DNA of 64,000 nucleotides. It comes from an uncultured Candidatus Micrarchaeota archaeon (GTDB lineage: Archaea; Micrarchaeota; Micrarchaeia; Anstonellales; Bilamarchaeaceae). Below are positions 23,788 through 52,787 of this stretch, piece after piece (position 1 is the stretch's first letter; each line of letters begins with the position of its first letter). The stretch is taken from positions 128,001-192,000 of the forward strand of contig OY970229.1 of assembly GCA_963714085.1 (NCBI GenBank), written 5' to 3'. The notes under the pieces are model-generated. The model searched no databases and was not told the origin of the DNA. It worked only from the letters and a program-made list of their open reading frames with translations. The translations under genes were made by a program, and so were the position numbers.

Positions 23788-23840
23788 GACTGTTTTCTGC
23801 CTCAGAAGGCTTAAAAAAACCCCTTTTGCATGCTTATTCC

Positions 23841-24596
23841 ATGAAACTGCTCAAACTGGGGGGCTCTGTGATAACCCGGAAGTCGGGATGGCGCGAGGCG
23901 GACCTCAAGGCGATAGAGGCGCTGGCGGACGTCGTGGCCTCGGCATGGAAGAAGTCCGAGCGCGACTGGGTGCTCGTGCACGGGGCAGGCTCGTTCGGCC
24001 ACCCGCTGGTCGTCAAGTACGGCATCAACGACGGCGTGAAGAACGCTGCGCAGAAGCTCGGGTTCGCGATGACGCACGAGGCATGCTCGGAATTGTCCGT
24101 GCTCGTCGTCGGAACGCTCAACAGCGCCGGAATGCCCGCGGTGCCGGTTCCGCCCGCCATGGTGATAACCTCCAAGAACAGGCGCATACACTCATTCAAC
24201 ACGAAAGTGGTCGACGATTACCTGAAATCCGGGTACGTGCCAGTGCTTTTCGGGGACATGGTCCCCGACATAGAGCTCGGCGGCTCGGTGTGCTCCGGGG
24301 ACCAGATAATATCCTACCTGGGCAAGGCTGCGGAGCGCATACTCCTAGCCACGAACGTGGACGGGGTGCTCGACGACAAGGGAAAGGTCATTGAGCAGAT
24401 AACGGGCAGGAACTTCGCGGACGTCTCGCGGCATTTCAAGTCCGCGGAAGGCGACGTCACCGGGGCAATGGCAGGCAAGATAAAGGAATTGCTCGAGCTT
24501 GATACTCCTTCTTACGTGGTCAACGGGCTGAAGCCTGAGCGCGTGGAGGCGCTCATGCTCGGGAAGAGGGCGGTCTGCACCGAGATAAGGAAATGA
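23841..24596 (+). CDS. ipk: Isopentenyl phosphate kinase
   Basis: KLGGSVIT.K, VHGAGSFGH, PVLFGD, SGD, DVTGAM.GK. Confidence 0.92.
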   Translation: MKLLKLGGSVITRKSGWREADLKAIEALADVVASAWKKSERDWVLVHGAGSFGHPLVVKYGINDGVKNAAQKLGFAMTHEACSELSVLVVGTLNSAGMPAVPVPPAMVITSKNRRIHSFNTKVVDDYLKSGYVPVLFGDMVPDIELGGSVCSGDQIISYLGKAAERILLATNVDGVLDDKGKVIEQITGRNFADVSRHFKSAEGDVTGAMAGKIKELLELDTPSYVVNGLKPERVEALMLGKRAVCTEIRK

Positions 24597-24635
24597 TGAA
24601 CACAAAATGTAATCATTTATAAGATAATCCCATCA
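24553..24635 (+). repeat. 83-bp direct repeat, copy 1 (IPK 3' end plus TATA promoter)
   Basis: 79/83 identical to 25989-26071. Confidence 0.95.
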
Positions 24636-24646
24636 TAACTTTTTTC

Positions 24647-25981
24647 ATGCCAGAGACAGCAACCGCCAGGGTTATTTTTGCGCCTAAGGCCAGCCGCGCT
24701 GTCCCGCCCAGGCGCTGCAAGCCGCATTTCTTCGCATGCCAGACAGAGGGCATACGCAAGCAGCCAAGGGGCGCCGGCAAAACCCGCAGGAAAGCCCTTC
24801 TGAACAGCGAGCTGGCAGGCCTCTGGGAGTTCGCTAAGAAGAGAAAGGCGACCATCTCGAAGAAAGAGGAGGCGGAGATGTTCGGGATATACCTGCGCGT
24901 GGTCAGGCGCATGCAGGAGCTGAAGCATCTGCGGGAAAGGTGGAACGGACCCGTGAAACAGGAGCTCGTGCGCCTTTCCGAGGCGAAGGAGCTTGCGGAG
25001 AGGGTGGTCGCGAGCAGAGGGGACATGAGATACCTCAGGGAACTCGCTGCAGAGAAGAGGCGGTCGCTCGAGAAAGAGGAGGAATACGCCGTCTTCCGGA
25101 TTTATAGGCGGGTGCTCCCCCGCATGATGAACCTCGGGAAGGGAGGCATTGCAGCGAACGCGGAACACGGACTCGTGGCTCAGGAGATGGAGCGGCTTTC
25201 CGAGGCGAAAAGGCTTGCCGAGACCATAATCATCCAGACCATGGAAAAGCAGTTCTGGATGACAGCCAAATACGTGATCCACCCCTCGGTCATAGAAAAA
25301 TCAGACCTCGTTCAGGAGGCCTGCATGGCTGTAGTAAGAAGAGCTATGCGCACCTTTGACCCTGACCAGGACTGCAGAATCTCCACGTACTGCCAGTTAG
25401 GGATAACGCGGGCCATGAAACGCGCGGTTCAGAATCAGGGGAAGACCATCAGGATCCCGTGCAATACGTACACCATAAGCGCCAAGGTCAACAGAGCTTA
25501 CATGGAATGCCGCAAATCTGGCTACGAGCCGACCGCGCAGGAGATAGCTGATCTTGCCGGACTCGACCTGAAGAAGGTCGTGAGATGCCTCGAAATGCCG
25601 GATACGCTCAGCATGGACGTTAGGCCAGAGGACAGGCTTGCATTAATCGATACGATTCCGGACAATGGCATGGATCCGCTGGAGACGCTTGTCAACGCTG
25701 AGGTGGGAAGCGTGGTGGAGACGCTCCTTGGGAAACTGAGGCCCGACCAGCGCAGGATATTGTGCATGAGGCAGGGCCTGGGCTGCAAAGAGCACACGTT
25801 GAAGGAGATCGCAGAAGTAGATGGATGCAGCGGCGAGAACATAAGGCAGAAGCTGTTCAAGATAGCGAGAAGGATACGCAATGCGAACAAGGCGCTGCTG
25901 CGCGAGTACCAGGGCTATGGCCCCGATGACGAAGCGCCATCCCATGAACCCGGAGAGCAGGCCAGCGCCGGGCAGCGGTAG
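24647..25981 (+). CDS. Sigma-70 family (RpoD/RpoS-like) protein
   Basis: DLVQEA, FDPDQDCRISTY, QGKTIRIP, EPTAQEIA, HTLKEIA...ENIRQ (regions 2-4). Confidence 0.88.
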   Translation: MPETATARVIFAPKASRAVPPRRCKPHFFACQTEGIRKQPRGAGKTRRKALLNSELAGLWEFAKKRKATISKKEEAEMFGIYLRVVRRMQELKHLRERWNGPVKQELVRLSEAKELAERVVASRGDMRYLRELAAEKRRSLEKEEEYAVFRIYRRVLPRMMNLGKGGIAANAEHGLVAQEMERLSEAKRLAETIIIQTMEKQFWMTAKYVIHPSVIEKSDLVQEACMAVVRRAMRTFDPDQDCRISTYCQLGITRAMKRAVQNQGKTIRIPCNTYTISAKVNRAYMECRKSGYEPTAQEIADLAGLDLKKVVRCLEMPDTLSMDVRPEDRLALIDTIPDNGMDPLETLVNAEVGSVVETLLGKLRPDQRRILCMRQGLGCKEHTLKEIAEVDGCSGENIRQKLFKIARRIRNANKALLREYQGYGPDDEAPSHEPGEQASAGQR

Positions 25982-25988
25982 CCTGCCA

Positions 25989-26071
25989 TCATGCCCGGGA
26001 AGAAGGCGGTCTGCACCGGGATAAGGAAATGACGAACACAAAATGTAATCATTTATAAGATAATCCCATCA
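25989..26071 (+). repeat. 83-bp direct repeat, copy 2
   Basis: Copy of the IPK 3' end plus promoter, located between the two sigma genes. Confidence 0.95.
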
Positions 26072-26082
26072 AATGAATTCTC

Positions 26083-27426
26083 ATGCTCGCAGCAGAAACG
26101 GCCAGGCGCACTCATATCCAATCAGCCGGCACGGCCCGTCCTGGACGCAAAGCATTGAGGCTCGTCGCGTGCGAGACGGAGACGATCCGCAAGCATCCAG
26201 CCAACATCAACGGGGCCCGCGGGAAGCCGCTGTCTGCGAAGGAGATGAGATACCTCGAAAGGCTCGCTGCAGAAAGGAAGGAGGTCATCGGGAAAAAGGA
26301 TGAGGCCGAGGTATCCGCGATATACCTGCGCGTGGTCTGGCGCATGGAGGAGCTGCAGGCGAAGCGGGCCACCAGGGCCGTGAGACTCGAACTCGAGCAG
26401 CTCTCCAATGCCAAGGGGCTTGCCGAGGGAATGGTCGTGAACGAGGCCGAGCTGCGGCAGCTCCGGGAAATCGCGGCGGAGAGGGCCAAGACGCTCGAGC
26501 CAGGAGTGGAACGGTACATCTGCACCATCTATCGGCGCGTGCACCCCCGCCTCATGAGTCTCAAGGAGGTCAACGAGGCGCAGAAAAAGATACCCGGGCA
26601 GCAGGGCTGCAAGGCCGAAAAGGAGCCCGGGCTCATCGAACGGGAGATCAAACGGCTCGCAGAGCCGAAGAGGCTTGTCGAGGATATAGTCACCACCGGG
26701 TTGAACGCGTTATTCTATGACAGGGCCCGGCGCATCTTAAGGTACCCTGATTCCATAGAGCGGTGCGATCTCGTCAATGAAACCAAGATTGCTGTCATAA
26801 ATAACGTCATGCCCCGTTTTGATCCGACCCTCGGTTACAGGCTGTCCACGTACTGCAACTTGCCGATGAACCGGGTCATGGTACGCTACGTACAGACTCA
26901 TAAGAGGGATATCAGGTGGCCGGTCTACATATGCGAGGCGATAGGCAGGTTGAGCAAGGCTTCGCAACTGCGCCGGAACCTGGAAGGCAGGGAACAGAGC
27001 ATCGAAGAAATAAGGAAAACCACGGATCTCCCCCCGAGCGTGATCGCAGCGTGCATGAGAGCGCCGCAAACGGTCAGCCTGAGCGAAAAGCTGCGCCACG
27101 GTGAAGGGAAGAAGCGGATCGACCGTATCGAGGATACAAGCAGCGTGAATCCGCTGGACGCGGTTTTCGATAGCAAAGCGAAGGATCTGGTGAACGAGTG
27201 CCTCGACGTACTCAGCCCGAGGTATGCGAGGATAATGCGCATGAGATACGGCCAGGACCAGACGCTCGACGCGATCGCTGACCGGGAGGGCATATCAAGA
27301 GAGAGGGTGAGGCAGATACTGGCCAAAGCCTTGAGGACGCTGCGCAGGAAGAATAGGATGAAGCTGTGCGATTTCTACGGGGGCAAACCGCCCTGTTACG
27401 ACCAGCAGGCTAATCTTGAGATGTAG
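26083..27426 (+). CDS. Sigma-70 family (RpoD/RpoS-like) protein, diverged paralogue
   Basis: DLVNE, FDPTLGYRLSTY, DIRWP, LSPR...MRYG..QTLDAIA..EGISRERVRQI..KAL..LR. Confidence 0.88.
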   Translation: MLAAETARRTHIQSAGTARPGRKALRLVACETETIRKHPANINGARGKPLSAKEMRYLERLAAERKEVIGKKDEAEVSAIYLRVVWRMEELQAKRATRAVRLELEQLSNAKGLAEGMVVNEAELRQLREIAAERAKTLEPGVERYICTIYRRVHPRLMSLKEVNEAQKKIPGQQGCKAEKEPGLIEREIKRLAEPKRLVEDIVTTGLNALFYDRARRILRYPDSIERCDLVNETKIAVINNVMPRFDPTLGYRLSTYCNLPMNRVMVRYVQTHKRDIRWPVYICEAIGRLSKASQLRRNLEGREQSIEEIRKTTDLPPSVIAACMRAPQTVSLSEKLRHGEGKKRIDRIEDTSSVNPLDAVFDSKAKDLVNECLDVLSPRYARIMRMRYGQDQTLDAIADREGISRERVRQILAKALRTLRRKNRMKLCDFYGGKPPCYDQQANLEM

Positions 27427-27488
27427 GCGGGCGCTGGAGAGCAGGGCCTGAACCAAAACCATAAATATCACCAGCCAGATAACCGCTC

Positions 27489-28154
27489 ATGAACAAAAAG
27501 GCGCTCGCGTCCATGGGCTGGATAATCCGGACCATGAGCACCGAAGCCGGAAAAAGAAATCCTCCGGTCAACAAGGTGGACAGGATAACCCGCAGCAGCC
27601 CGTTCCGCGCGCTCGTCTTCACGATCCTTTCAGCGAGGACGAAGGACGCGAACACCATCGCCGCGGCGGGAAGGCTGCTCGAAAAAGCACCGACCCCGAA
27701 AGCGCTCGCGCGCATGCAGATAAAGAAAATAGAAAAACTCGTGCATTCTTCCGGATTCTACAGGATGAAGGCCAGGAACCTCTCCGCCATGGCGAAGATG
27801 CTTCTGACGGATTTCAACGGCAAGGTCCCGTCCGATATCGAGAGCCTGGTGCGCCTGCCGGGCGTAGGAAGGAAGACCGCTAACATCTTATTGGTCTATT
27901 CCTTCGGCAAGGACGCCATTCCGGTGGACACCCACGTGCACAGGATAAGCAATAGGCTGGGCATAGTGAGAACGAAGACGCCGGAGAAAACGGAGAAGGC
28001 GCTCATGTCCGCGGTCCCGAAGAGGCTCTGGAAACCGCTAAACCACGCGTTCGTGTCCTACGGCCAGACCATATGCCTGCCCAGGAACCCGAAGTGCAGG
28101 GAGTGCAAACTGAACAGGGTATGCTGGAGAATCGGCGTGCGCTCCGGTATATAA
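27489..28154 (+). CDS. nth: Endonuclease III
   Basis: HhH LPGVGRKTAN, PVDTHVHR, CLPRNPKCRECKLNRVC 4Fe-4S motif. Confidence 0.95.
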   Translation: MNKKALASMGWIIRTMSTEAGKRNPPVNKVDRITRSSPFRALVFTILSARTKDANTIAAAGRLLEKAPTPKALARMQIKKIEKLVHSSGFYRMKARNLSAMAKMLLTDFNGKVPSDIESLVRLPGVGRKTANILLVYSFGKDAIPVDTHVHRISNRLGIVRTKTPEKTEKALMSAVPKRLWKPLNHAFVSYGQTICLPRNPKCRECKLNRVCWRIGVRSGI

Positions 28155-28308: not shown

Positions 28309-29418
28309 TCACGGAAGGCAGTTTATCGGCGGCATCTTTCGCGCCGGCTCGAACGAGTCCCCGATCAAGCCTGCGAACACCCGGGCACCTTTGATTTCGA
28401 CGCTACGGAGAACCGAAACCAATGGCGCATCGGCCGGGTTCTTCGGATTCTCCGCGATCCGCTCTATGCCGCGGGCGAAGAGCTCGTTCTCGTATATCCC
28501 GTTCAGCTGGGCCCGCAGGGACGCGAGCTCCTCCAGAGGCAGCTCAGGCACGGAGACCTCGGAGCCGAGGGAGCCGATCAGCCGCTTGAATTCCCGGAGG
28601 CCGCCCAGGACGCCATCGATATTCCCCATGGTGGAATCGACGTATCCCTTGAAATCCACCGAAGGGTCCGGCTTGTCGATCTCGGCGTCGAGGGCCTTGG
28701 TGGATTCGTTCCAGGCCATCAGAAGGTTGCCGGTCCGGACCAGGACCACGGCGCAGGATCGCAATGTTCTGGCATCCATGGACTCGCCACCGGAGTCGTC
28801 TATGGCGTCCATGCGCTCTTTTACCTTATCGTGCGAATCGAAGAAGGCGCGGATCAGCCGGCCTTCGATTTCCATGGAGCTCTTCATGAACACGGAGAAC
28901 GTGTCGAACAGATACCCTTCGAAGACCAGCTCAGACGTGGCGCTGGGCGTGGTCCTGTCCAGGGCTTGGGCAGCACGCTTCCGGTCGTCGCATCCCATGC
29001 GCTCCCAGAGGTAGTGACCCACCTCATGGTCCACGGCGCTGTTTAAGATGCGTTGGTCGTAGGTTATCTCGAAAGACGCGACCCGGCCGTCATCCTTGAA
29101 GCTGATCCGTCCCTCTAAAGACTGGAGCTTTCTGAGGTAAGCGGCCTCGGGCTCAGGCATGCGTCTCAAAATGGAGTCCGAAACCGCCCTCGGGACCAGG
29201 GAGACGGCGGGTATGGCGTCCGCCACCGGCTGGGGCCATCGCCCAAGCTCGCGCTCCACCGAGCCGCCGCGGCGTATGCCCTCGCACCGGGCATGCAGGG
29301 TCCCGAGCTCCTCCCTGATGGACCTTCTCTCCGCCATTATCGAAAGGCATTCGCGGGTCGCGGTAGCGGTAAGCGCCGTGATGGCGACTGCTGCGATGAT
29401 GCGATTGCGCGGCTTCAT
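28309..29418 (-). CDS. Signal-anchored protein with zincin HExxH motif
   Basis: N-terminal hydrophobic segment; HEVGH; distal NELFAR as a possible third ligand. Confidence 0.6.
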   Translation of the reverse strand: MKPRNRIIAAVAITALTATATRECLSIMAERRSIREELGTLHARCEGIRRGGSVERELGRWPQPVADAIPAVSLVPRAVSDSILRRMPEPEAAYLRKLQSLEGRISFKDDGRVASFEITYDQRILNSAVDHEVGHYLWERMGCDDRKRAAQALDRTTPSATSELVFEGYLFDTFSVFMKSSMEIEGRLIRAFFDSHDKVKERMDAIDDSGGESMDARTLRSCAVVLVRTGNLLMAWNESTKALDAEIDKPDPSVDFKGYVDSTMGNIDGVLGGLREFKRLIGSLGSEVSVPELPLEELASLRAQLNGIYENELFARGIERIAENPKNPADAPLVSVLRSVEIKGARVFAGLIGDSFEPARKMPPINCLP

Positions 29419-39634: not shown

Positions 39635-40113
39635 CCCACTCCGAATTCAGCGATGTATCGCTCCAATAGCGCTACGAACTGCGTCGGAGCCATGGGGCAG
39701 CCGGGCAGGGAGTCGTCCACCTTCACTATCGCGCTCAGCGGGACTATCTTGTCGCGCAGATGGTGCTTCTCGAGGAACGGCCTTATCGTGCCGAGCATCA
39801 GCGGGGTGAAGGAGTTGCGCTGCCCTGCCGGGAGCCCGGTGCACGCGCACGCTCCCATCGCGACCAGCTTCTTCGACCGCTTGCGTATGTCTTTGAGCTC
39901 GTCCTCCTCCTTTTCCGTGGATATCGCGCCCTCTATGAACGCGACGTCGAACTCGCCGTGCTTGTTGTCGGTCTTGAGCTGGCGGCAGTGCTTGAACTCG
40001 ATCTTATCCTTCCACTCGAAATAGTACTGGTTCAGGAGCTCCACGAAGAGTATGGTGTTGTCCTCGGAGCAGGTGAACGTGAACCAGCCCACGGCCAGCT
40101 TCCTCTTTGCCAT
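39631..40113 (-). CDS. [NiFe] hydrogenase small subunit, proximal-cluster domain only
   Basis: TCSED, FIEGAI, AMGACAC, LPGCP; 160 aa. Confidence 0.88.
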   Translation of the reverse strand: MAKRKLAVGWFTFTCSEDNTILFVELLNQYYFEWKDKIEFKHCRQLKTDNKHGEFDVAFIEGAISTEKEEDELKDIRKRSKKLVAMGACACTGLPAGQRNSFTPLMLGTIRPFLEKHHLRDKIVPLSAIVKVDDSLPGCPMAPTQFVALLERYIAEFGVG

Positions 40114-40165
40114 GCGTCCTTATTCCATATCAGGTTAAAATAGATTACCTAATACGAACCCTTTG

Positions 40166-40558
40166 ATGGAAAAAATCCTGGTGTTCGGGAACCCGCTCGT
40201 GGAGGGGGATTCGCTCCCGCTCCGGCTGCTGCCCAGCTTGAAAAAGGCCTTTCCGGGGATAGAGTTCGTGGAGTTCGACGCTGTGGAGGACCTGGAGAAG
40301 GCCGGTGAGGAGATAACCCTGCTGGACACCGTGCAGGGGATAGGAGAGGTGACGGTCTTCCACGGGATGGATTCCTTCTCCCAGAGCCCGCGCTTCAGCA
40401 TGCACGATTTCGACCTGCCGGTCTATCTCAGGCTGCTCACGAAGATGGGCATGGTGAAGAAGGTCACTATAATAGGAGTACCGGAAACAGGGAAAGAGGA
40501 CACGCTGAGACAAGCCGAGGAAGCGATATCGGGGCTGTTGGATGGAGAAGCTGATTGA
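40166..40558 (+). CDS. Hydrogenase maturation protease
   Basis: VFGNPLVEGD, LLDTV, SMHD. Confidence 0.85.
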   Translation: MEKILVFGNPLVEGDSLPLRLLPSLKKAFPGIEFVEFDAVEDLEKAGEEITLLDTVQGIGEVTVFHGMDSFSQSPRFSMHDFDLPVYLRLLTKMGMVKKVTIIGVPETGKEDTLRQAEEAISGLLDGEAD

Positions 40559-41189
40559 AATAAACGGCCGGATATACTCCGTCATACGGGTCACGTCCAC
40601 GAACAGGAACGCGATAGCCAGGCTCAAGGACGACAGGATAATCATCAGCGTCCCGCGCAGGTGGCCCCAGGGCGAGGCGGACGCGGTGGCTGGAAGGCTG
40701 GAGGCCCGCGCGATAAAGAGCATCTCCAAAGGGAGATGGGGCAGCCGCAGTATGAGGGGGCTGGAGTTCCAGCCTGGCCAGGAGCTGGAGATCCTCGGGA
40801 GAAGATTCAGGATAACTGGGAATTCCAAGCCGGAGAGGATACGCAAGGGAATAGCCAGGCGCGTGCTTCCGGACCTGGAAGCCAGGATAAGGATGATAAA
40901 CGAGGCGCATTTCAGGGCCGAGATAAGGCGCGTGTCGCTCCGGGACAACAGCAGCCGATGGGGCAGCTACTCCACCAAGGGCACGGTGAACCTGAATTTC
41001 AGGCTGCTCTTCGCGCCTCCGGAAATATTGGAATATGTGATAGTCCACGAGCTGGCGCACAGCAGATACCGCGGCCACGGGCCCAGGTTCTGGGGCGTGG
41101 TGGAGAAGCTGGTCCCGGATTACAAGGAGAAACGGAAGTGGCTCAGGGAGAACGGGCACACGCTGGGAACCGGACCATCTTTCCAGTGA
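40542..41189 (+). CDS. YgjP/DUF45 (M48-like) metal-dependent hydrolase
   Basis: SRWGSYS, EYVIVHELAH, HGPRFW. Confidence 0.9.
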   Translation: MEKLIEINGRIYSVIRVTSTNRNAIARLKDDRIIISVPRRWPQGEADAVAGRLEARAIKSISKGRWGSRSMRGLEFQPGQELEILGRRFRITGNSKPERIRKGIARRVLPDLEARIRMINEAHFRAEIRRVSLRDNSSRWGSYSTKGTVNLNFRLLFAPPEILEYVIVHELAHSRYRGHGPRFWGVVEKLVPDYKEKRKWLRENGHTLGTGPSFQ

Positions 41190-41204
41190 TTGGGGATTTG
41201 AACC
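41172..41204 (+). repeat. 33-bp perfect direct repeat, copy 1 (contains the stop codon of the M48-like gene)
   Basis: GGACCATCTTTCCAGTGATTGGGGATTTGAACC, identical to 42310-42342. Confidence 0.97.
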
Positions 41205-41332
41205 TCCATAAATATCCAGTGTCTGCATTCAGCATTTGTGATATTCAAAGTTATTCTTCGTCAAATGTCATATTTGTCGCTTGAAATGGATAAAAACGAT
41301 AAATTTAAATACTGTTTTTATGTAATATATTT

Positions 41333-42247
41333 ATGGAGCATGCGCAGCCCAAAAACCGTAAACTTGAATTACGGCTTAAAGAAGGATTTCTTTCACCTAA
41401 TGTAAGAAGAGAACTCAAAGGACCCATTTCATGCATTACTACTATGAAGCCTATTGTTGAAGTTACATTTAATAGAAAGCCACCTGTTTTTGGAGCGATT
41501 GATAATACTAGACCCCGGCAGATTGTCGGTCCTAGCCAAAAACTTGAAACTCTTAAAACAATGGCAATGGCATTGAGGACATTTGGTGAAAAAGTTCGCA
41601 TAGCTGAATTAGTTGATATGGTAAGAAAAAACCTGGTCTATCCGTACCCTGGTTCTGGCTTAGAGGCCCGATTTGATGCTTTGGAAAATGATGCCAAACA
41701 AGATGATGATAAACGACTTTCATTGGGGAAAGGAGTGCGATCTGAAAATCTGTCCGTTTTTGTAGATGCTGGAATTGGCAAATGCAGGCATTTTGCTGCA
41801 CTTTATGGGATTCTTGGCGCTTCGGCTAATTTAGACGTAGAACTTTTAGGCGGAATTGTAAGAAATTTCAATAGACCTGACACTAAATTACCTGCTTTCA
41901 AATCAATCCCCTTGGGCGTACAAGTTGAGCATGCTTTCAATGAAGTTCATTTAAATGGCGAAAGGATTCCTGTTGATCCTACGGCAAACATGGTTTGTTT
42001 TGACGATTCATCAAAAGCAGTGCACTACGAAAATTATGGTGTATGCCAGTTCAAAGACGACGAGGTCTCAATCCATGCATCAGATAGAGTTTTGAGCATG
42101 ACACAGCAATTTAATCTTACACGAAGTGGTTTGATAGTAAGGATTAGTGTAGCTGGGGAACCCAAAGCCCCATTGACTGCTTCTTTTGATATGGAAATTC
42201 AAAGCGCTAAACCTATAGTTGAAGGAGTCGAAATCCAAGTTTCATGA
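41333..42247 (+). CDS. Transglutaminase-like (Cys-His-Asp) protein on an AT-rich insert
   Basis: GKCRHFA, EHAFNEV, PVDPT; visibly much lower GC than the flanks. Confidence 0.8.
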   Translation: MEHAQPKNRKLELRLKEGFLSPNVRRELKGPISCITTMKPIVEVTFNRKPPVFGAIDNTRPRQIVGPSQKLETLKTMAMALRTFGEKVRIAELVDMVRKNLVYPYPGSGLEARFDALENDAKQDDDKRLSLGKGVRSENLSVFVDAGIGKCRHFAALYGILGASANLDVELLGGIVRNFNRPDTKLPAFKSIPLGVQVEHAFNEVHLNGERIPVDPTANMVCFDDSSKAVHYENYGVCQFKDDEVSIHASDRVLSMTQQFNLTRSGLIVRISVAGEPKAPLTASFDMEIQSAKPIVEGVEIQVS

Positions 42248-42309
42248 TTCATTCTTTCGCTCCGTTTCAGCTGCCTAGTAGCCTAATCCGTATAAAGACT
42301 GTTTCGGGT

Positions 42310-42342
42310 GGACCATCTTTCCAGTGATTGGGGATTTGAACC
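42310..42342 (+). repeat. 33-bp perfect direct repeat, copy 2
   Basis: Identical to 41172-41204. Confidence 0.97.
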
Positions 42343-42398
42343 CGAATTCGGTATAATGTCGCTTTTTAAGTATTAATGCGAAGGTTTAAATAAAGCGA

Positions 42399-43052
42399 AT
42401 GGGCAATGATATCATGGGAACGCCATCACTTAGGATGAAAAGCCTTGAGGATACCTGTAGAGATAGGCCCAGGGACAGGCTAACGGTGTATAAGCTGCCT
42501 GCTGAAAAATTGAATCTGCTAGGGACCGAGCTTAGATGCAGACTTGGCCCTACCGAAGCCGGAAATCTCCTTCGCGCTCTTTGCGAGGAAGACGATGCTA
42601 CGTTGGGGATGATCGGCGTCTCTCATGAAACGTTATCTGAACGATTGAAATCCCGGATACTGAATCCGAAAGCTACGGATAGAATCGATTTAAGCAGAGG
42701 CATCGAACACTGCCCATTCGGCAATGCGGGCTCATGCGACGTTCCTGAGCTATCTTCTGCAACGATCGCCCTCGTCAAAGTAGAATTGGATGCCGCACTG
42801 CGGTTTTCGCATCTGTTGGTCCATTTGGTCGCTGGGCACGGTTTTTTCGGATTTCCGGAACCGTCCTACACCGGCGTACCGGTCAGTACGTCCCGTGCGT
42901 GGCCCTTGGATCTCGCGCTCATGCTGGATTTGATTGACTCGGAGAAGCATGCGAGGGTAATTTCACAAGTCTATGGAGACGCGCTTACATGGAAAAGCCG
43001 ATTTTGGCCGGTTCGCGAGCTGGGACCAGGTCCTACTAGCGACTATAGATAG
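42399..43052 (+). CDS. Hypothetical protein
   Basis: 217-aa ORF; CPF and H-rich HLLVHLVAGHGFF segment; intermediate GC. Confidence 0.6.
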   Translation: MGNDIMGTPSLRMKSLEDTCRDRPRDRLTVYKLPAEKLNLLGTELRCRLGPTEAGNLLRALCEEDDATLGMIGVSHETLSERLKSRILNPKATDRIDLSRGIEHCPFGNAGSCDVPELSSATIALVKVELDAALRFSHLLVHLVAGHGFFGFPEPSYTGVPVSTSRAWPLDLALMLDLIDSEKHARVISQVYGDALTWKSRFWPVRELGPGPTSDYR

Positions 43053-43231
43053 AGTTGATTACTCCATCCGATCCATGCGAACAGAAGACATCGCATTTCA
43101 ATTCTTTTTAGGCCGATCCAAGCATTCTCTTCCTGGAACTGCTTTTCCTAGCCCTTGACGGAAATGGATTGGCGCCGATGCGCCCGCCCTATTGAAAAAG
43201 TTTTTTAAACGTTAACTAGGAAATCCGCTAT

Positions 43232-43290
43232 GGCGATGAAGCTCACCAGGCACTAGACCGAACCGCCCTCACCGGGCTGATGGCTTCTAC
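43232..43290 (+). promoter_or_regulatory. Fluoride (crcB-motif) riboswitch aptamer
   Basis: GGCGATGAAGCTCACC...AACCGC...GCTGATGGCTTCTAC follows the consensus GGCGAUGnnGUUCGCC...AACCGC...GCUGAUGnCnnCUAC; GAAGC/GCTTC pseudoknot; BRE/TATA GAAAAAG-TTTTTTAAA about 25-30 bp upstream; one C-A mismatch in P1. Confidence 0.82.
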
Positions 43291-43309
43291 TTCCAGAGGG
43301 ACAGATGCT

Positions 43310-43462
43310 ATGAACGTTGAAGACGCAAGGGTATGCACGACATGCCTCATGAACACCGGAATGAACATTTTGTTGGCCAAGAAAGACGACGTGTTCGTAT
43401 GCCCCAAGAATCCTGCGCACAGGTTCAGGCTGGGAAAAGACGGCTACCTGAGATCGATTTAG
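43310..43462 (+). CDS. 50-aa putative zinc-ribbon microprotein
   Basis: CTTC...CPKNPAH; ATG 19 nt after the aptamer. Confidence 0.7.
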   Translation: MNVEDARVCTTCLMNTGMNILLAKKDDVFVCPKNPAHRFRLGKDGYLRSI

Positions 43463-43479
43463 CATTCGTATTCGAAGAC

Positions 43480-43908
43480 GGTTTCCATGGACGCGGCTTG
43501 AGCCTCGGCGCGTCAATCGCTCTGGACGACCGGAAAACAAAAGATTAGCGTCTTTCACTCGTCGTCCTTAACCGGAGCAAGCTGCGGCTTGCAATTAAGC
43601 CTAAGGAAAGATTCGTCATACCCTGAGACGAGCGAAAAAAGAGATGCCTTGATTCCGTCAAACAATCGGATCCGCATGACTCCCTTTAGCCGGACCTTGT
43701 ATATAATGCCGCGTTTTCACGTCGGAGAGTTCCGGAAGGCCTGAAACGATGGCTTTGCACAGGAAAAACCGCGAAACGTGTCCCCAAACCATAGGAAACC
43801 CCGGCCTGCGGATGACGCTGACCCTAATCGCCGGTTTTTGGGTTAGGGCGCGCGCAGCGGAAAGAACGGTGTCAGAAAGAGGACTGACACGCTGAAGCAA
43901 AGCGTTTT
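43480..43908 (+). ncRNA. Candidate large structured non-coding RNA, family not recognised
   Basis: No credible ORF; long-range pairing 43480-43490 with 43789-43800 plus several local hairpins with A-rich linkers. Confidence 0.5.
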
Positions 43909-43918
43909 ATAACCTAGT

Positions 43919-44785
43919 ATGGAAAATCAGCTCATGCGGACTCTCATCCTATTGTGCGTACTTGGAATCTTCGCGGTTTTCCTGGCCGGCTGCACGCAGG
44001 CCCCGACCACGTCCCCGCCGCCACAGACGCAGCACCTGTGCAGCGACGGCACCACGATAGTCACGGATATGAGCCAGTGCCCGCAGGTGGACAGCGAGAT
44101 GCTCCAATGCCAGAAGGAGTCCACGGCCGAGGATTCCAACGGCGACAGCCCGCACAGCACGTGCCTCTTCAACCTCGCAGTGGAGCGCAACAACGTCTCT
44201 CTCTGCAAGGAGATATACACCAGCCAGCCGGACTACGCGCAGTACAGCCCGGCCAAATGCGGTGCGCATATCGCGGACAGCATGAACGACCCGACCGTCT
44301 GCGACCAGCTCGGCCTCACGTCGAGCTCGGAATGCTACAGCCAGCTGGCCACCTCGGCCCAGGACCCGACCATCTGCGAGTCCATAAAAACCAGCACGCT
44401 GAGGGACAACTGCATCTACAGCTATGTGCTCGACAATTCGTATGAGATAAGCGACTGGAGCGTCTGCGACAAGCTGACCCCGGCCAGCTCTGACGCGGAC
44501 TACTGCTATTACACCGCGGCGACGAGCAGCGAGAACTCGAAGTACTGCGACAAGATGTCAGGGAGCTCGATCGCGTATACGACCGCGGACTGCTACGGGG
44601 ACGTGGCCTACGGCACGAGCACCCCGACTCTGTGCGGCTCGCTTTCCAAACAGAGCGACAAGGACGAATGCTACTATGACTACGCAACCAGCGCGTACAA
44701 TACGAGCATGTGCAACTACATCTCGAGCCCGACGAAGAAGACCGACTGCATGATGTACGCCAATTATACCGATAGCTACTATTGA
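43919..44785 (+). CDS. Cys-rich repeat lipoprotein
   Basis: Lipobox LAGC; about 7 repeats of CY..(A)....(D)...C..L/I. Confidence 0.8.
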   Translation: MENQLMRTLILLCVLGIFAVFLAGCTQAPTTSPPPQTQHLCSDGTTIVTDMSQCPQVDSEMLQCQKESTAEDSNGDSPHSTCLFNLAVERNNVSLCKEIYTSQPDYAQYSPAKCGAHIADSMNDPTVCDQLGLTSSSECYSQLATSAQDPTICESIKTSTLRDNCIYSYVLDNSYEISDWSVCDKLTPASSDADYCYYTAATSSENSKYCDKMSGSSIAYTTADCYGDVAYGTSTPTLCGSLSKQSDKDECYYDYATSAYNTSMCNYISSPTKKTDCMMYANYTDSYY

Positions 44786-51668: not shown

Positions 51669-51773
51669 ATAACATCACCAATAATAACTACTATTCCATG
51701 TTAAATATAATTATCTAAAAATTATTCTCACAAAATGACAATGCTTATATATTTACTGTTACAATAGTAAAAT

Positions 51774-52787
51774 ATGGACAATGTCTATATTCTTGATACC
51801 AAGGACAGGAAGATACTCGCTGAGCTTGACAGCGACGCCAGACAGTCCAACAGCGAGATAGGGAAGAAGGTCGGCCTCAGCAAGGAGGTCGTGAAATACC
51901 GGATAGACAAGCTCATGGAGAGGGGCGTCATACTCCGGTTCCATACGATAGTGAACTATTTCCGCATCGGCATCATGAAGTACAAGCTCTACCTCAAGCT
52001 GAAGAACGTCAACAGGAAAAAGCGGGAGGAGATAGGGCGGCATTTCTCCAGCCACCCCAGGAGCGAGTGGGTCGTGCTCACCAGCGGCAAATGGGACATG
52101 ATAGTAGGGTTCTACGCGAGGAACGTGAACGAGTTCGACGACGACGTCCTCGCGGCGATGAACCGCTTCACGGACTGCATCCAGGACAAGGCCGTGACGA
52201 CCACGCTCTATCTGGCGCACCAGATGCGCGGCTTCGTAGAAGGCCGCGAGGAGAAGGAGCCCTCGACTGTCGTCTATTACACCACCAAGGACAGGCTGGA
52301 GAAAATAGACCGGCTGGACGAGGAGCTTCTACGGACGATCGCAAACAACGCCCGCATGCCCACCACCATGATCGCCAAAAGGCTGAAGACCACTCCCAGG
52401 GTGGTGCAGTACCGCATCAGGGAGCTGGAGCGGAAGAAGGTCATACTCGGATACAGGTCGCACCTCGAGCCGAAGGCCATGGGGAACCTGTTCTGCAAGG
52501 CGATAATCTACCTGACCAACGCGAACGAGGAGAGGATAAACTCGTTCATCGGCTTCGTGTCGTCAATGAAGGGCGTTGTCTGGCCCCAGAGGGTGCTCGG
52601 CTCGTGGGATTTCGAGATAGACTTCGAGCTCCCCAGCTACGACGAGTTCCAGGAGAGCATAATGAGGCTGAAGGAGAGGTTCCCGGACATAATGAAGGAC
52701 CAGGACTTCACGATAACGTACAAGGAGTTCAAGCTCGACCTGTTCCCAGGAGCGATTCCGTCGGTCAAGGAGGATGCGAAGGCGTGA
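51774..52787 (+). CDS. Tandem-domain Lrp/AsnC regulator
   Basis: Two HTH+RAM units (LDTKDRKIL...DARQS; IDRLDEELL...NARMP). Confidence 0.9.
   Translation: MDNVYILDTKDRKILAELDSDARQSNSEIGKKVGLSKEVVKYRIDKLMERGVILRFHTIVNYFRIGIMKYKLYLKLKNVNRKKREEIGRHFSSHPRSEWVVLTSGKWDMIVGFYARNVNEFDDDVLAAMNRFTDCIQDKAVTTTLYLAHQMRGFVEGREEKEPSTVVYYTTKDRLEKIDRLDEELLRTIANNARMPTTMIAKRLKTTPRVVQYRIRELERKKVILGYRSHLEPKAMGNLFCKAIIYLTNANEERINSFIGFVSSMKGVVWPQRVLGSWDFEIDFELPSYDEFQESIMRLKERFPDIMKDQDFTITYKEFKLDLFPGAIPSVKEDAKA

Follow-up and report, generated by a model that had tools for sequence, protein, structure and literature searches.

Tandem sigma-70-family genes lacking the region 2.3 tryptophan pair in a Micrarchaeota chromosome: possible repurposed DNA-binding regulators

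Two tandem genes of the bacterial sigma-70 family, here called ORF1 and ORF2 (ORF, open reading frame), are carried in the chromosome of an uncultured Candidatus Micrarchaeota archaeon, a tiny symbiotic archaeon (GenBank assembly GCA_963714085.1, contig OY970229.1). They were analyzed within a stretch of 64,000 nucleotides (nt), positions 128,001 to 192,000 of the forward strand, which we call the window and number from its first letter. The assignment of both genes to the sigma-70 family was confirmed, and the pair is real and native to the archaeal genome (labelled G000 below). Both copies have lost the two adjacent tryptophans (W-W) of region 2.3, and much of the constraint pattern seen in bacteria has gone as well; a role as promoter-melting initiation factors is therefore improbable. 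The reading that we favour, although tentatively, is that they are repurposed accessory DNA-binding regulators.

A preliminary description of this DNA, made from the letters alone, had placed two tandem sigma-70 genes between archaeal ipk and nth genes, and the Pfam, NCBIfam, phmmer and flank models bear this out (Table 1). Apart from ORF1 and ORF2, the region has no long frame that makes sense, and both genes are read from the same strand. ORF1 is laid out as a basic N-tail followed by two tandem helical modules (amino acids (aa) ~52-128 and 129-212) and then by sigma regions 2, 3 and 4. In Pfam, it scored above the cut-offs of Sigma70_r2 (25.3 bits, cut-off 24), Sigma70_r3 (31.3 bits, cut-off 25.3) and Sigma70_r4 (37.7 bits, cut-off 24.1), so that the three sigma domains proposed in the preliminary description were all recovered in this protein. 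In ORF2 the proposal stood for region 4 (58.1 bits against the same cut-off of 24.1, with r4_2 above its cut-off too). As to region 2, in a genome-wide search with Sigma70_r2 (PF04542), ORF1 scored 28.1 bits and ORF2 18.7 bits, which is under the cut-off. Despite this score, region 2 of ORF2 could be aligned with RpoD without gaps, and the fold agrees. Both proteins pass the NCBIfam model of the sigma-70 superfamily (TIGR02937, cut-off 42.9), with 59.3 bits for ORF1 and 79.2 bits for ORF2. Their best matches there were models of RpoD, SigA and RpoS: the RpoD-Cterm, cyano-RpoD and RpoS TIGRFAM models gave 81-114 bits against cut-offs of 354-385, and the remaining models gave less; neither ORF reached any of the RpoD/RpoS equivalog or subfamily cut-offs of NCBIfam (354-555), the best scores being 95.8 and 113.5 bits, the latter obtained by ORF2 with RpoD_Cterm over aa 226-427.

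Comparison with proteins of determined structure led to the same family. HrdB, SigA and RpoD were the best phmmer matches in the PDB (1e-25 to 1e-23), and HMMER aligned aa ~134-165 of ORF2 with region 1.2 of HrdB, although the region 1.2 model (PF00140) found no match at E <= 10 in the N-terminal halves of the two ORFs. An AlphaFold2 model of ORF2, built on a 78-row alignment, had a mean predicted local distance difference test score of 85.5, with disorder confined to aa 1-42, and all top Foldseek matches of this model in the PDB were primary sigmas (mycobacterial SigA, HrdB and RpoD, probability 1.00). The N-terminal module is repeated in both ORFs, where a 57-nt unit occurs four times at the DNA level, and the two halves of the repeat in ORF1 match each other by BLASTP (E 1e-10, 28/66 identical).

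The loss of the tryptophan pair claimed in the preliminary description was found at the same peptides in both proteins (Table 1). In the ungapped phmmer alignment of region 2, STYCNLPMNRVM of ORF2 faces STYATWWIRQAI, so that the L-P of ORF2 falls at the W-W position, at which the first tryptophan is present in 59/62 and the second in 62/62 of the bacterial rows; ORF1 has, in addition, a C at the upstream Tyr/Phe column of region 2.3. The core-binding motif of region 2.2, DLIQEGNxGL in bacteria, is not matched either, the corresponding residues being DLVNETKIAV in ORF2 and DLVQEACMAV in ORF1.

Table 1. Position and support of the sigma-70-family genes, their diagnostic segments, the direct repeat and the flanking genes (coordinates of the window)
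Feature	Position	Strand	Support or detail
ORF1, sigma-70 family, 444 aa	24647..25981	+	Pfam r2/r3/r4 all above cut-off; tree placement
ORF2, sigma-70 family, 447 aa, architecture as ORF1	26083..27426	+	Pfam r4; RpoD_Cterm; AlphaFold2; Foldseek
ORF1 region 2.3 (ISTYCQLGITRAM), L and G at the bacterial W-W	25379..25417	+	aa 245-257
ORF2 region 2.3 (LSTYCNLPMNRVM), L and P at the bacterial W-W	26842..26880	+	aa 254-266
ORF1 region 4.2 recognition helix, degenerate	25829..25852	+	SGENIRQK, consensus TRERVRQI
ORF2 region 4.2 recognition helix, intact	27295..27318	+	SRERVRQI
Direct repeat, copy 1: ipk 3' end, promoter, first ORF1 codons	24553..24670	+	
Direct repeat, copy 2: ipk 3'-end remnant, promoter, first ORF2 codons	25989..26106	+	
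Isopentenyl phosphate kinase gene (ipk), upstream flank	23826..24596	+	NCBIfam IPPK_Arch 206.4 bits, cut-off 120; Pfam AA_kinase
Endonuclease III-like gene (nth), downstream flank	27489..28154	+	TIGR01083 195.9 bits, cut-off 211.7; Pfam HhH-GPD

The genes belong to an archaeal chromosome, as the preliminary description had it. The genome is a single contig of 1,571,539 bases with TBP, TFB (443 bits, cut-off 384) and a single archaeal-type Rpb1_1 match, before which Rpo2 is located; a search of the genome for the bacterial alpha-CTD gave no match, and the same search was positive in 10/10 bacterial control genomes. Besides ORF1 and ORF2, no third gene matching Sigma70_r2 or the profile of the clade described below was found in the whole genome. 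The flanking genes are an archaeal mevalonate-pathway set (AcnX, UbiD, UbiX, IPK, MVK) and the nth-like gene, and the order AcnX-UbiD-UbiX-IPK-sigma-sigma-orphan-nth-MVK is conserved in a genome of the same genus (G001), as is UbiD-UbiX-IPK-sigma in a metagenome contig (L059). Contigs from sequencing run X1, which is possibly the source sample itself, tile the region without a single difference, and they run across from ORF1 into the intergenic DNA and from ORF2 into nth. Run X2, from another study, yielded pieces that are 97-99% alike, with 0-3 differences each; the four strain-level differences listed in X2 are three synonymous changes and one K to R. An assembly chimera or bacterial contamination, for which no evidence was found and to which we give next to no weight, would have to account for the one-contig genome, the synteny shared with a second genome and with a metagenome contig, the X1 contigs across the junctions, the X2 pieces, the archaeal-type promoters and an inconspicuous guanine-plus-cytosine (GC) content (0.57-0.58 in the sigma genes vs 0.59-0.61 around them).

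Both proteins have relatives of the same kind. A word-based search gave one close relative, P0002, which is 53% identical to ORF2, the others being bacterial sigmas at <=35% identity over the C-terminal half. When 1.84 billion representatives were searched with a profile, 137,599 sigma-like proteins were obtained, ~13 of which, besides those of the window, scored above a bacterial plateau of ~200 bits. After genome and metagenome loci had been added, the clade set comprised 17 genes, in which fragments are represented by their full-length forms (P0098 by L058, P0002 by L059, P0097 by L060a, P0107 by L060b, P0094 by G001b and P0095 by G034). In an IQ-TREE analysis of 26 rows, the 16 archaeal rows were split from the 10 bacterial ones at 100/100, and an inner group of 10 archaeal rows was recovered at 100/98. 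ORF2 was placed with L058 (100/99), then with L059 (100/99) and then with G001a (91/93), and ORF1 was paired with L060b (86/87). Divergent sigma-like genes on long branches (those of G007, G018, G029, G006, G038 and G056) were left out of this tree, and the trees give no resolution of the donor phylum of the original transfer.

The clade is also defined by features of its own. A one-residue insertion in region 2.2 is present in 16/16 clade rows vs 2/62 bacterial sigmas; in the inner group a three-helix module, extending from a region 1.2-like segment through the start of region 2.1, is duplicated in tandem; and the N-tail is basic and has a motif of the type C-x-x-E-T-I-(R/H)-K in 7/10 inner members, counting those with a known and aligned N-terminus (ORF1 reads EGIRK). 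The window genes have the insertion, the ETI(R/H)K motif with the duplicated module, and the CACAAAATG-N6-TATA promoter. The clade has so far been seen only in Micrarchaeota-type genomes and metagenome contigs. ORF2 was matched in 12/61 genomes of relatives (E <= 0.001), and the clade profile, at E <= 1e-8, in 36/301 genomes of the phylum and in 21/65 of the same family, both counts including G000. A scan of genome contigs with ORF2 alone gave no relative, the same type of scan with the subclade alignment A6 gave only two matches, to the contig of G001 and, weakly, to a bacterial sequence, and a single scan of viral contigs with A6 gave none. Among the more divergent genes, G018 encodes a protein of 1661 aa that has Sigma70_r2 and r4 in its middle part (L021:1261-6246), followed, after one ORF (358 aa, no family), by a 410-aa sigma-like gene (L021:7411-8643) and GatD. 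L058:1-1150 shows 90.5% DNA identity to window positions 26293-27442, ending at the end of the gene, and the nth of L058 (3046-3711) has 53% protein identity to the window nth vs 81% for the G001 nth. Either Micrarchaeota lineages could have exchanged the sigma gene recently, or the nth could be non-orthologous.

Within the clade, the W-W pair is kept in 9/17 genes (G001a, L059, L060a, P0096, P0103, P0100, P0102, G034 and L061), only the second tryptophan in 4/17 (G001b, P0112, P0108 and P0156) and neither in 4/17 (ORF1, ORF2, L058 and L060b). Since 9/17 of the genes retain the pair, its absence from ORF1 and ORF2 is a derived loss, and since the genes without any tryptophan form two tree pairs (ORF2 with L058, and ORF1 with L060b), at least two complete losses took place. 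Tandem pairs elsewhere combine a W-W copy with an eroded one (W-W and D-W in G001, W-W and K-A in L060), and the genome studied here is unusual because W-W is absent from both copies. The recognition helix of region 4.2 is kept in ORF2, and it is not kept in ORF1 or L060b. The L060 genes (L060:657-1982 and L060:2078-3289), one with and one without W-W, constitute a third tandem pair, which has the promoter module described below before each gene and which is located between phosphoglucomutase and PRPP-synthetase-like genes.

The TATA box reported in the preliminary description was found before each gene: TTTATAAG is located at 24616 and at 26052, 31 nt upstream of the respective ATG. It forms part of a 118-nt direct repeat whose copies are 86% identical, with CACAAAATG at 24601 and AATCCCATCA at 24626 in copy 1, and CACAAAATG at 26037 in copy 2. 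The 90 nt before each gene (24558-24647 for ORF1) are 88-93% identical between the copies, vs 40-65% within the genes. The last ~40 nt of ipk belong to copy 1, and copy 2 has a dead version of them. Because of this dead ipk end before ORF2, and because ipk lies directly before an ORF2-type gene in G001 and L059, ORF1 seems to have reached its place between the two genes through recombination at the promoter that the copies share. When 915 long ORFs of the genome were considered, TATA-like hexamers peaked 31 to 28 nt before the ATG (25, 57, 66 and 39 occurrences, vs <=12 mostly elsewhere), a distribution that in sequence terms is the signature of leaderless archaeal transcription, and both sigma genes have TTTATA at -31, within this peak. 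By inspection, no TTGACA-like hexamer was found 17-18 nt before TATAAG or GATAAT upstream of the genes, as a bacterial-type promoter would have it, and intergenic DNA shows no enrichment of TTGACA (ratio 0.69, rank 1619/2080).

The promoter is also found beyond the window. The same module precedes G001a, G001b, L059, L060a, L060b and L061, and in a looser form G034, even where the upstream gene is not ipk. The alignment of nine genes gave a conserved module of 35 nt, AaCACAAAaTG..AT..TTTATAAg..AATcc.AtCA, in which 25 columns are conserved in at least 8/9 genes and 17 are invariant; both window promoters agree exactly with this cross-species consensus, and the proteins encoded behind it are down to ~25% identity. 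Elsewhere in the genome the full motif was not found, even with up to 3 mismatches allowed, the two sigma-gene sites being the only ones. A promoter that travels with the paralogues and outlasts their protein sequence points to a shared regulatory input, and our simplest guess is autoregulation, with the module itself as the candidate target. CACAAAATG occurs 8 times in the genome, 3 of them 6 nt before a TATA box, and may be a shared upstream regulatory site; the third such site (window 51729-51776) precedes an ORF of 337 aa with two AsnC/Lrp-type helix-turn-helix (HTH) domains (51774-52787).

The sigma genes evolve much faster than their neighbours, with an overall ratio of non-synonymous to synonymous substitutions (dN/dS) of 0.37-0.82 vs 0.06-0.14. 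Between G000 and G001, seven neighbouring genes have 81-90% protein identity and a dN/dS of 0.08-0.14, and ORF2 and G001a, at a dS similar to that of the neighbours, are 46% identical with a dN/dS of 0.38 (0.27-0.52 per domain, none at 1). Against L059, for which dS is unsaturated, the values were 0.59 for ORF2, 0.13 for ipk and 0.07 for ubiX. In bacteria, 39 columns reach a conservation of at least 90%, and of these 35 are kept in G034, 34 in P0102, 31 in G001a, 25 in ORF2 and 22 in ORF1. Furthermore, the divergence between the outer members P0102 and G034 still follows the bacterial pattern of column conservation (r -0.43), and that between ORF1 and L060b shows no relation to it (r 0.05). 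Taken together, the rates and the retention of columns indicate that the family is sliding away from sigma-type constraint, with the window genes at the far end; by these measures the window copies are the most eroded and least sigma-like of the clade, and their recent evolution appears nearly neutral.

Several observations on the closest pair, ORF2 and L058 (90.4% nucleotide identity over 1131 ungapped nt), weigh against a maintained function such as the one that we favour. The dN/dS of this pair is 0.82 by NG86 and 0.66 by YN00, that is, nearly neutral; its 109 differences are distributed as 36/36/37 over the three codon positions of the 1131 nt (36/35/37 on 377 aligned codons, where ipk gives 23/14/72); they are unrelated to the conservation of the columns in the 62 bacterial sigmas (r 0.016, p 0.79); and the frame would have stayed free of stops by chance in 7% of 2000 random placements (P 0.07), which is marginal. 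In addition, DNA binding by a free sigma-like protein is a putative activity, suggested by the conserved helix residues. The figures for the closest pair are what would be expected if the family had once been functional and the window copies were decaying relics, open merely for lack of elapsed time, and the small number of bacterial near-invariant columns left in ORF1 and ORF2, the loss of W-W and the degenerate region 4.2 helix of ORF1 fit in with this. We nevertheless consider such decay rather unlikely. There is no indel in the 1131 nt that separate ORF2 from L058, and no broken reading frame was found among the clade genes compared. ORF1 and L060b, both without W-W, are both open at dN 0.54 and a saturated dS of 1.43, which argues that the W-W-less state has long been maintained. 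Both promoters are exact to the cross-species consensus, the X2 strain differences are mostly synonymous, and the long-range dN/dS (0.37-0.59) remains under 1. Hence, the dN/dS near 1 by which the preliminary description would have recognized neutral decay is approached by ORF2 (up to 0.82), whereas the unbroken frames and the per-domain values do not go along with it. The unbroken frames, the open lineage of ORF1 and L060b and the region 4.2 helix kept in ORF2 are, on the sequence evidence, a sign of continued selection on the pair.

The repurposing that we favour would have begun when one bacterial primary-type (group 1/2-like) sigma-70 gene entered the ancestor of this Micrarchaeota family. 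The acquired gene would then have been inherited, duplicated and reshuffled within these archaea, ORF1 and ORF2 being intact paralogues. For each of them, the archaeal machinery probably starts transcription at a separate TATA-box leaderless promoter with the clade-specific flanking motif. ORF2 may bind DNA through its intact region 4.2 HTH, ORF1 may act as a degenerate partner or as a competitor, and the conserved promoter module is a possible target of the proteins themselves, so that the pair would be autoregulated. A repurposed DNA-binding regulator was one of the two roles put forward in the preliminary description, and it gains from the conserved synteny, the archaeal leaderless promoters, the open frames and the want of a bacterial polymerase in the genome.

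Instead of binding DNA on their own, the proteins could dock on the archaeal RNA polymerase through its clamp coiled-coil, the homologue of the clamp helices of bacterial beta-prime. There they would either serve as an alternative factor in initiation or modulate, or compete with, TFB and TFE, and the copies without W-W would be non-melting competitors. The D-L-V-Q-E at the start of region 2.2 is kept throughout the clade (D and L in 15/16, Q and E in 14/16), the outer members keep 34-35 of the 39 columns and the bacterial pattern of divergence although the only polymerase available to them is archaeal, and the clamp coiled-coil is invariant in 13 genomes of the family. Other core-contact positions are, however, altered across the clade: the Asn of QEGN, present in 57/62 bacteria, is N in 2/16 clade rows and K or R in 10/16; the Gly that follows, present in 61-62/62 bacteria, is kept in 2/16 and replaced by Ala in 9/16; and members of the inner group no longer have the NLRLV motif of region 2.1. 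Furthermore, the clamp is identical in genomes with and without a sigma gene, so that there is no sign of co-evolution, and no bacterial-type -35 signal was detected in intergenic DNA. Prediction of a complex between Rpo1N (aa 1-420, 13-row alignment) and ORF2 (aa 130-300, 78-row alignment) gave a score of 0.00 in two runs, which is evidence neither way. On balance we regard docking as unlikely. The gene of Rpo1N, the largest polymerase subunit (L025:1480 onward), encodes, at aa ~110-190, a charged, Pro/Lys-rich and poorly conserved insertion of ~80 aa between the clamp zinc motifs.

A more far-reaching proposal, and in our view a quite improbable one, is that the whole clade constitutes a working sigma-type factor in archaeal cells, especially in its W-W-bearing members G034, P0102 and G001a. 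These three keep 31-35 of the 39 columns, and the outer two (G034 and P0102) diverge in the bacterial pattern. Such a factor would recognize, and perhaps open, TATA-like or -10-like DNA with or against the archaeal polymerase and TBP/TFB, and the tandem paralogues without W-W, both window copies among them, would be non-melting competitors or decoys wired in via the promoter module.

The second role considered in the preliminary description, in which the proteins, as decoy or hijacking sigmas, would target the RNA polymerase of a bacterial host or prey, found no support here, and we hold it to be very improbable. The proteins do have the fold of a primary sigma and evolve fast, as conflict genes do, but the core-binding motifs of regions 2.1 and 2.2 are eroded across the clade, the W-W pair is lost, and the surrounding genes are of the housekeeping kind. 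There is no evident route of delivery, a search for signal peptides or export signals not having been made. Cultured Micrarchaeota, moreover, are known from archaeal (Thermoplasmatales) hosts, which also counts against a bacterial target.

Some observations concern the surroundings of the pair. The orphan ORFs next to the sigma and nth genes, of 369 aa in the window (28309-29418, minus strand) and 337 aa in G001 (L018:6137-7150, minus strand), were considered as conserved partners and rejected, as they are not homologous (E 0.74) and neither has a Pfam, PADLOC or PHROG match. Window positions 40001-44000 have a GC content of 0.49-0.50 vs ~0.59-0.61 elsewhere and may be a foreign island. Outside the window, L003:967-2325 (minus strand; G000:C1 ~1528371-1529729) encodes a 452-aa protein with two long internal repeats, each headed by a weak region-4-like HTH (27.3 and 25.7 bits).

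The role of bacterial sigmas in cells that have only TBP/TFB is a question raised in 2021, to which this locus gives no answer. What it offers is a tractable set, that is, a clade with canonical (W-W) and eroded members and with tandem pairs of both kinds, for which the 35-nt promoter module is the obvious first DNA target candidate. That the window copies are the least sigma-like and have evolved nearly neutrally of late tempers the initial interest. A full-text literature search gave nothing on the function, the loss of the tryptophan pair, the N-terminal duplication or the promoter module.

Among known systems, the bacterial group 1 and 2 sigmas (RpoD/SigA/HrdB/RpoS) share with the window pair the fold and the ordered regions, 1.2-like, 2.1-2.4, 3 and 4.1-4.2; the window pair differs from them in having no acidic region 1.1, a duplicated N-module and a basic N-tail, in the absent W-W, in the changed Gly and Asn of region 2.2 and in the absence of a bacterial core polymerase from the cell. 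In promoter recognition, archaeal TFB/TFIIB functions as the counterpart of sigma, and this genome has it; no sequence relation between TFB and sigma was found at the level tested, the sole link being that the TFB gene scored 22.2 bits with Sigma70_r4, which is under the threshold. MzaA, which is the sigma in the MZA anti-phage system, gave weak matches over regions 2-4 (PADLOC 37.8 and 57.8 bits, NCBIfam 65.6 and 95.8 bits), far under the NCBIfam cut-off of 800 bits, and as no Mza partner genes lie near the pair, this likeness is of the kind generic to sigmas. The rpoS-like auxiliary genes that a 2025 paper (Nat Commun, PMC12647753) describes on viruses and prophages of DPANN archaea are also divergent and DPANN-associated, whereas the window pair is located in a conserved mevalonate-pathway neighbourhood and not in a provirus. 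The occurrence of sigma-70 in DPANN archaea, Micrarchaeota included, is already published: in the parts consulted, Castelle et al. (2021, PMC8204110) report sigma-70 (fam00359) in DPANN beside TBP/TFB and with no anti-sigma factors, give its function and mechanism as unknown, and list it in Table S3 at 0.154 of 13 Micrarchaeota genomes and at 0.39 for Woesearchaeota. What the window has in common with fam00359 is a sigma-70 (K03086-like) gene together with TBP and TFB, a likeness drawn by this criterion and not by the authors' own clustering. In those parts the earlier report deals with presence, and to this the present analysis adds the duplicated N-module, the insertion in region 2.2, the promoter, the tandem pairs, the loss of the tryptophans and the evolutionary rates.

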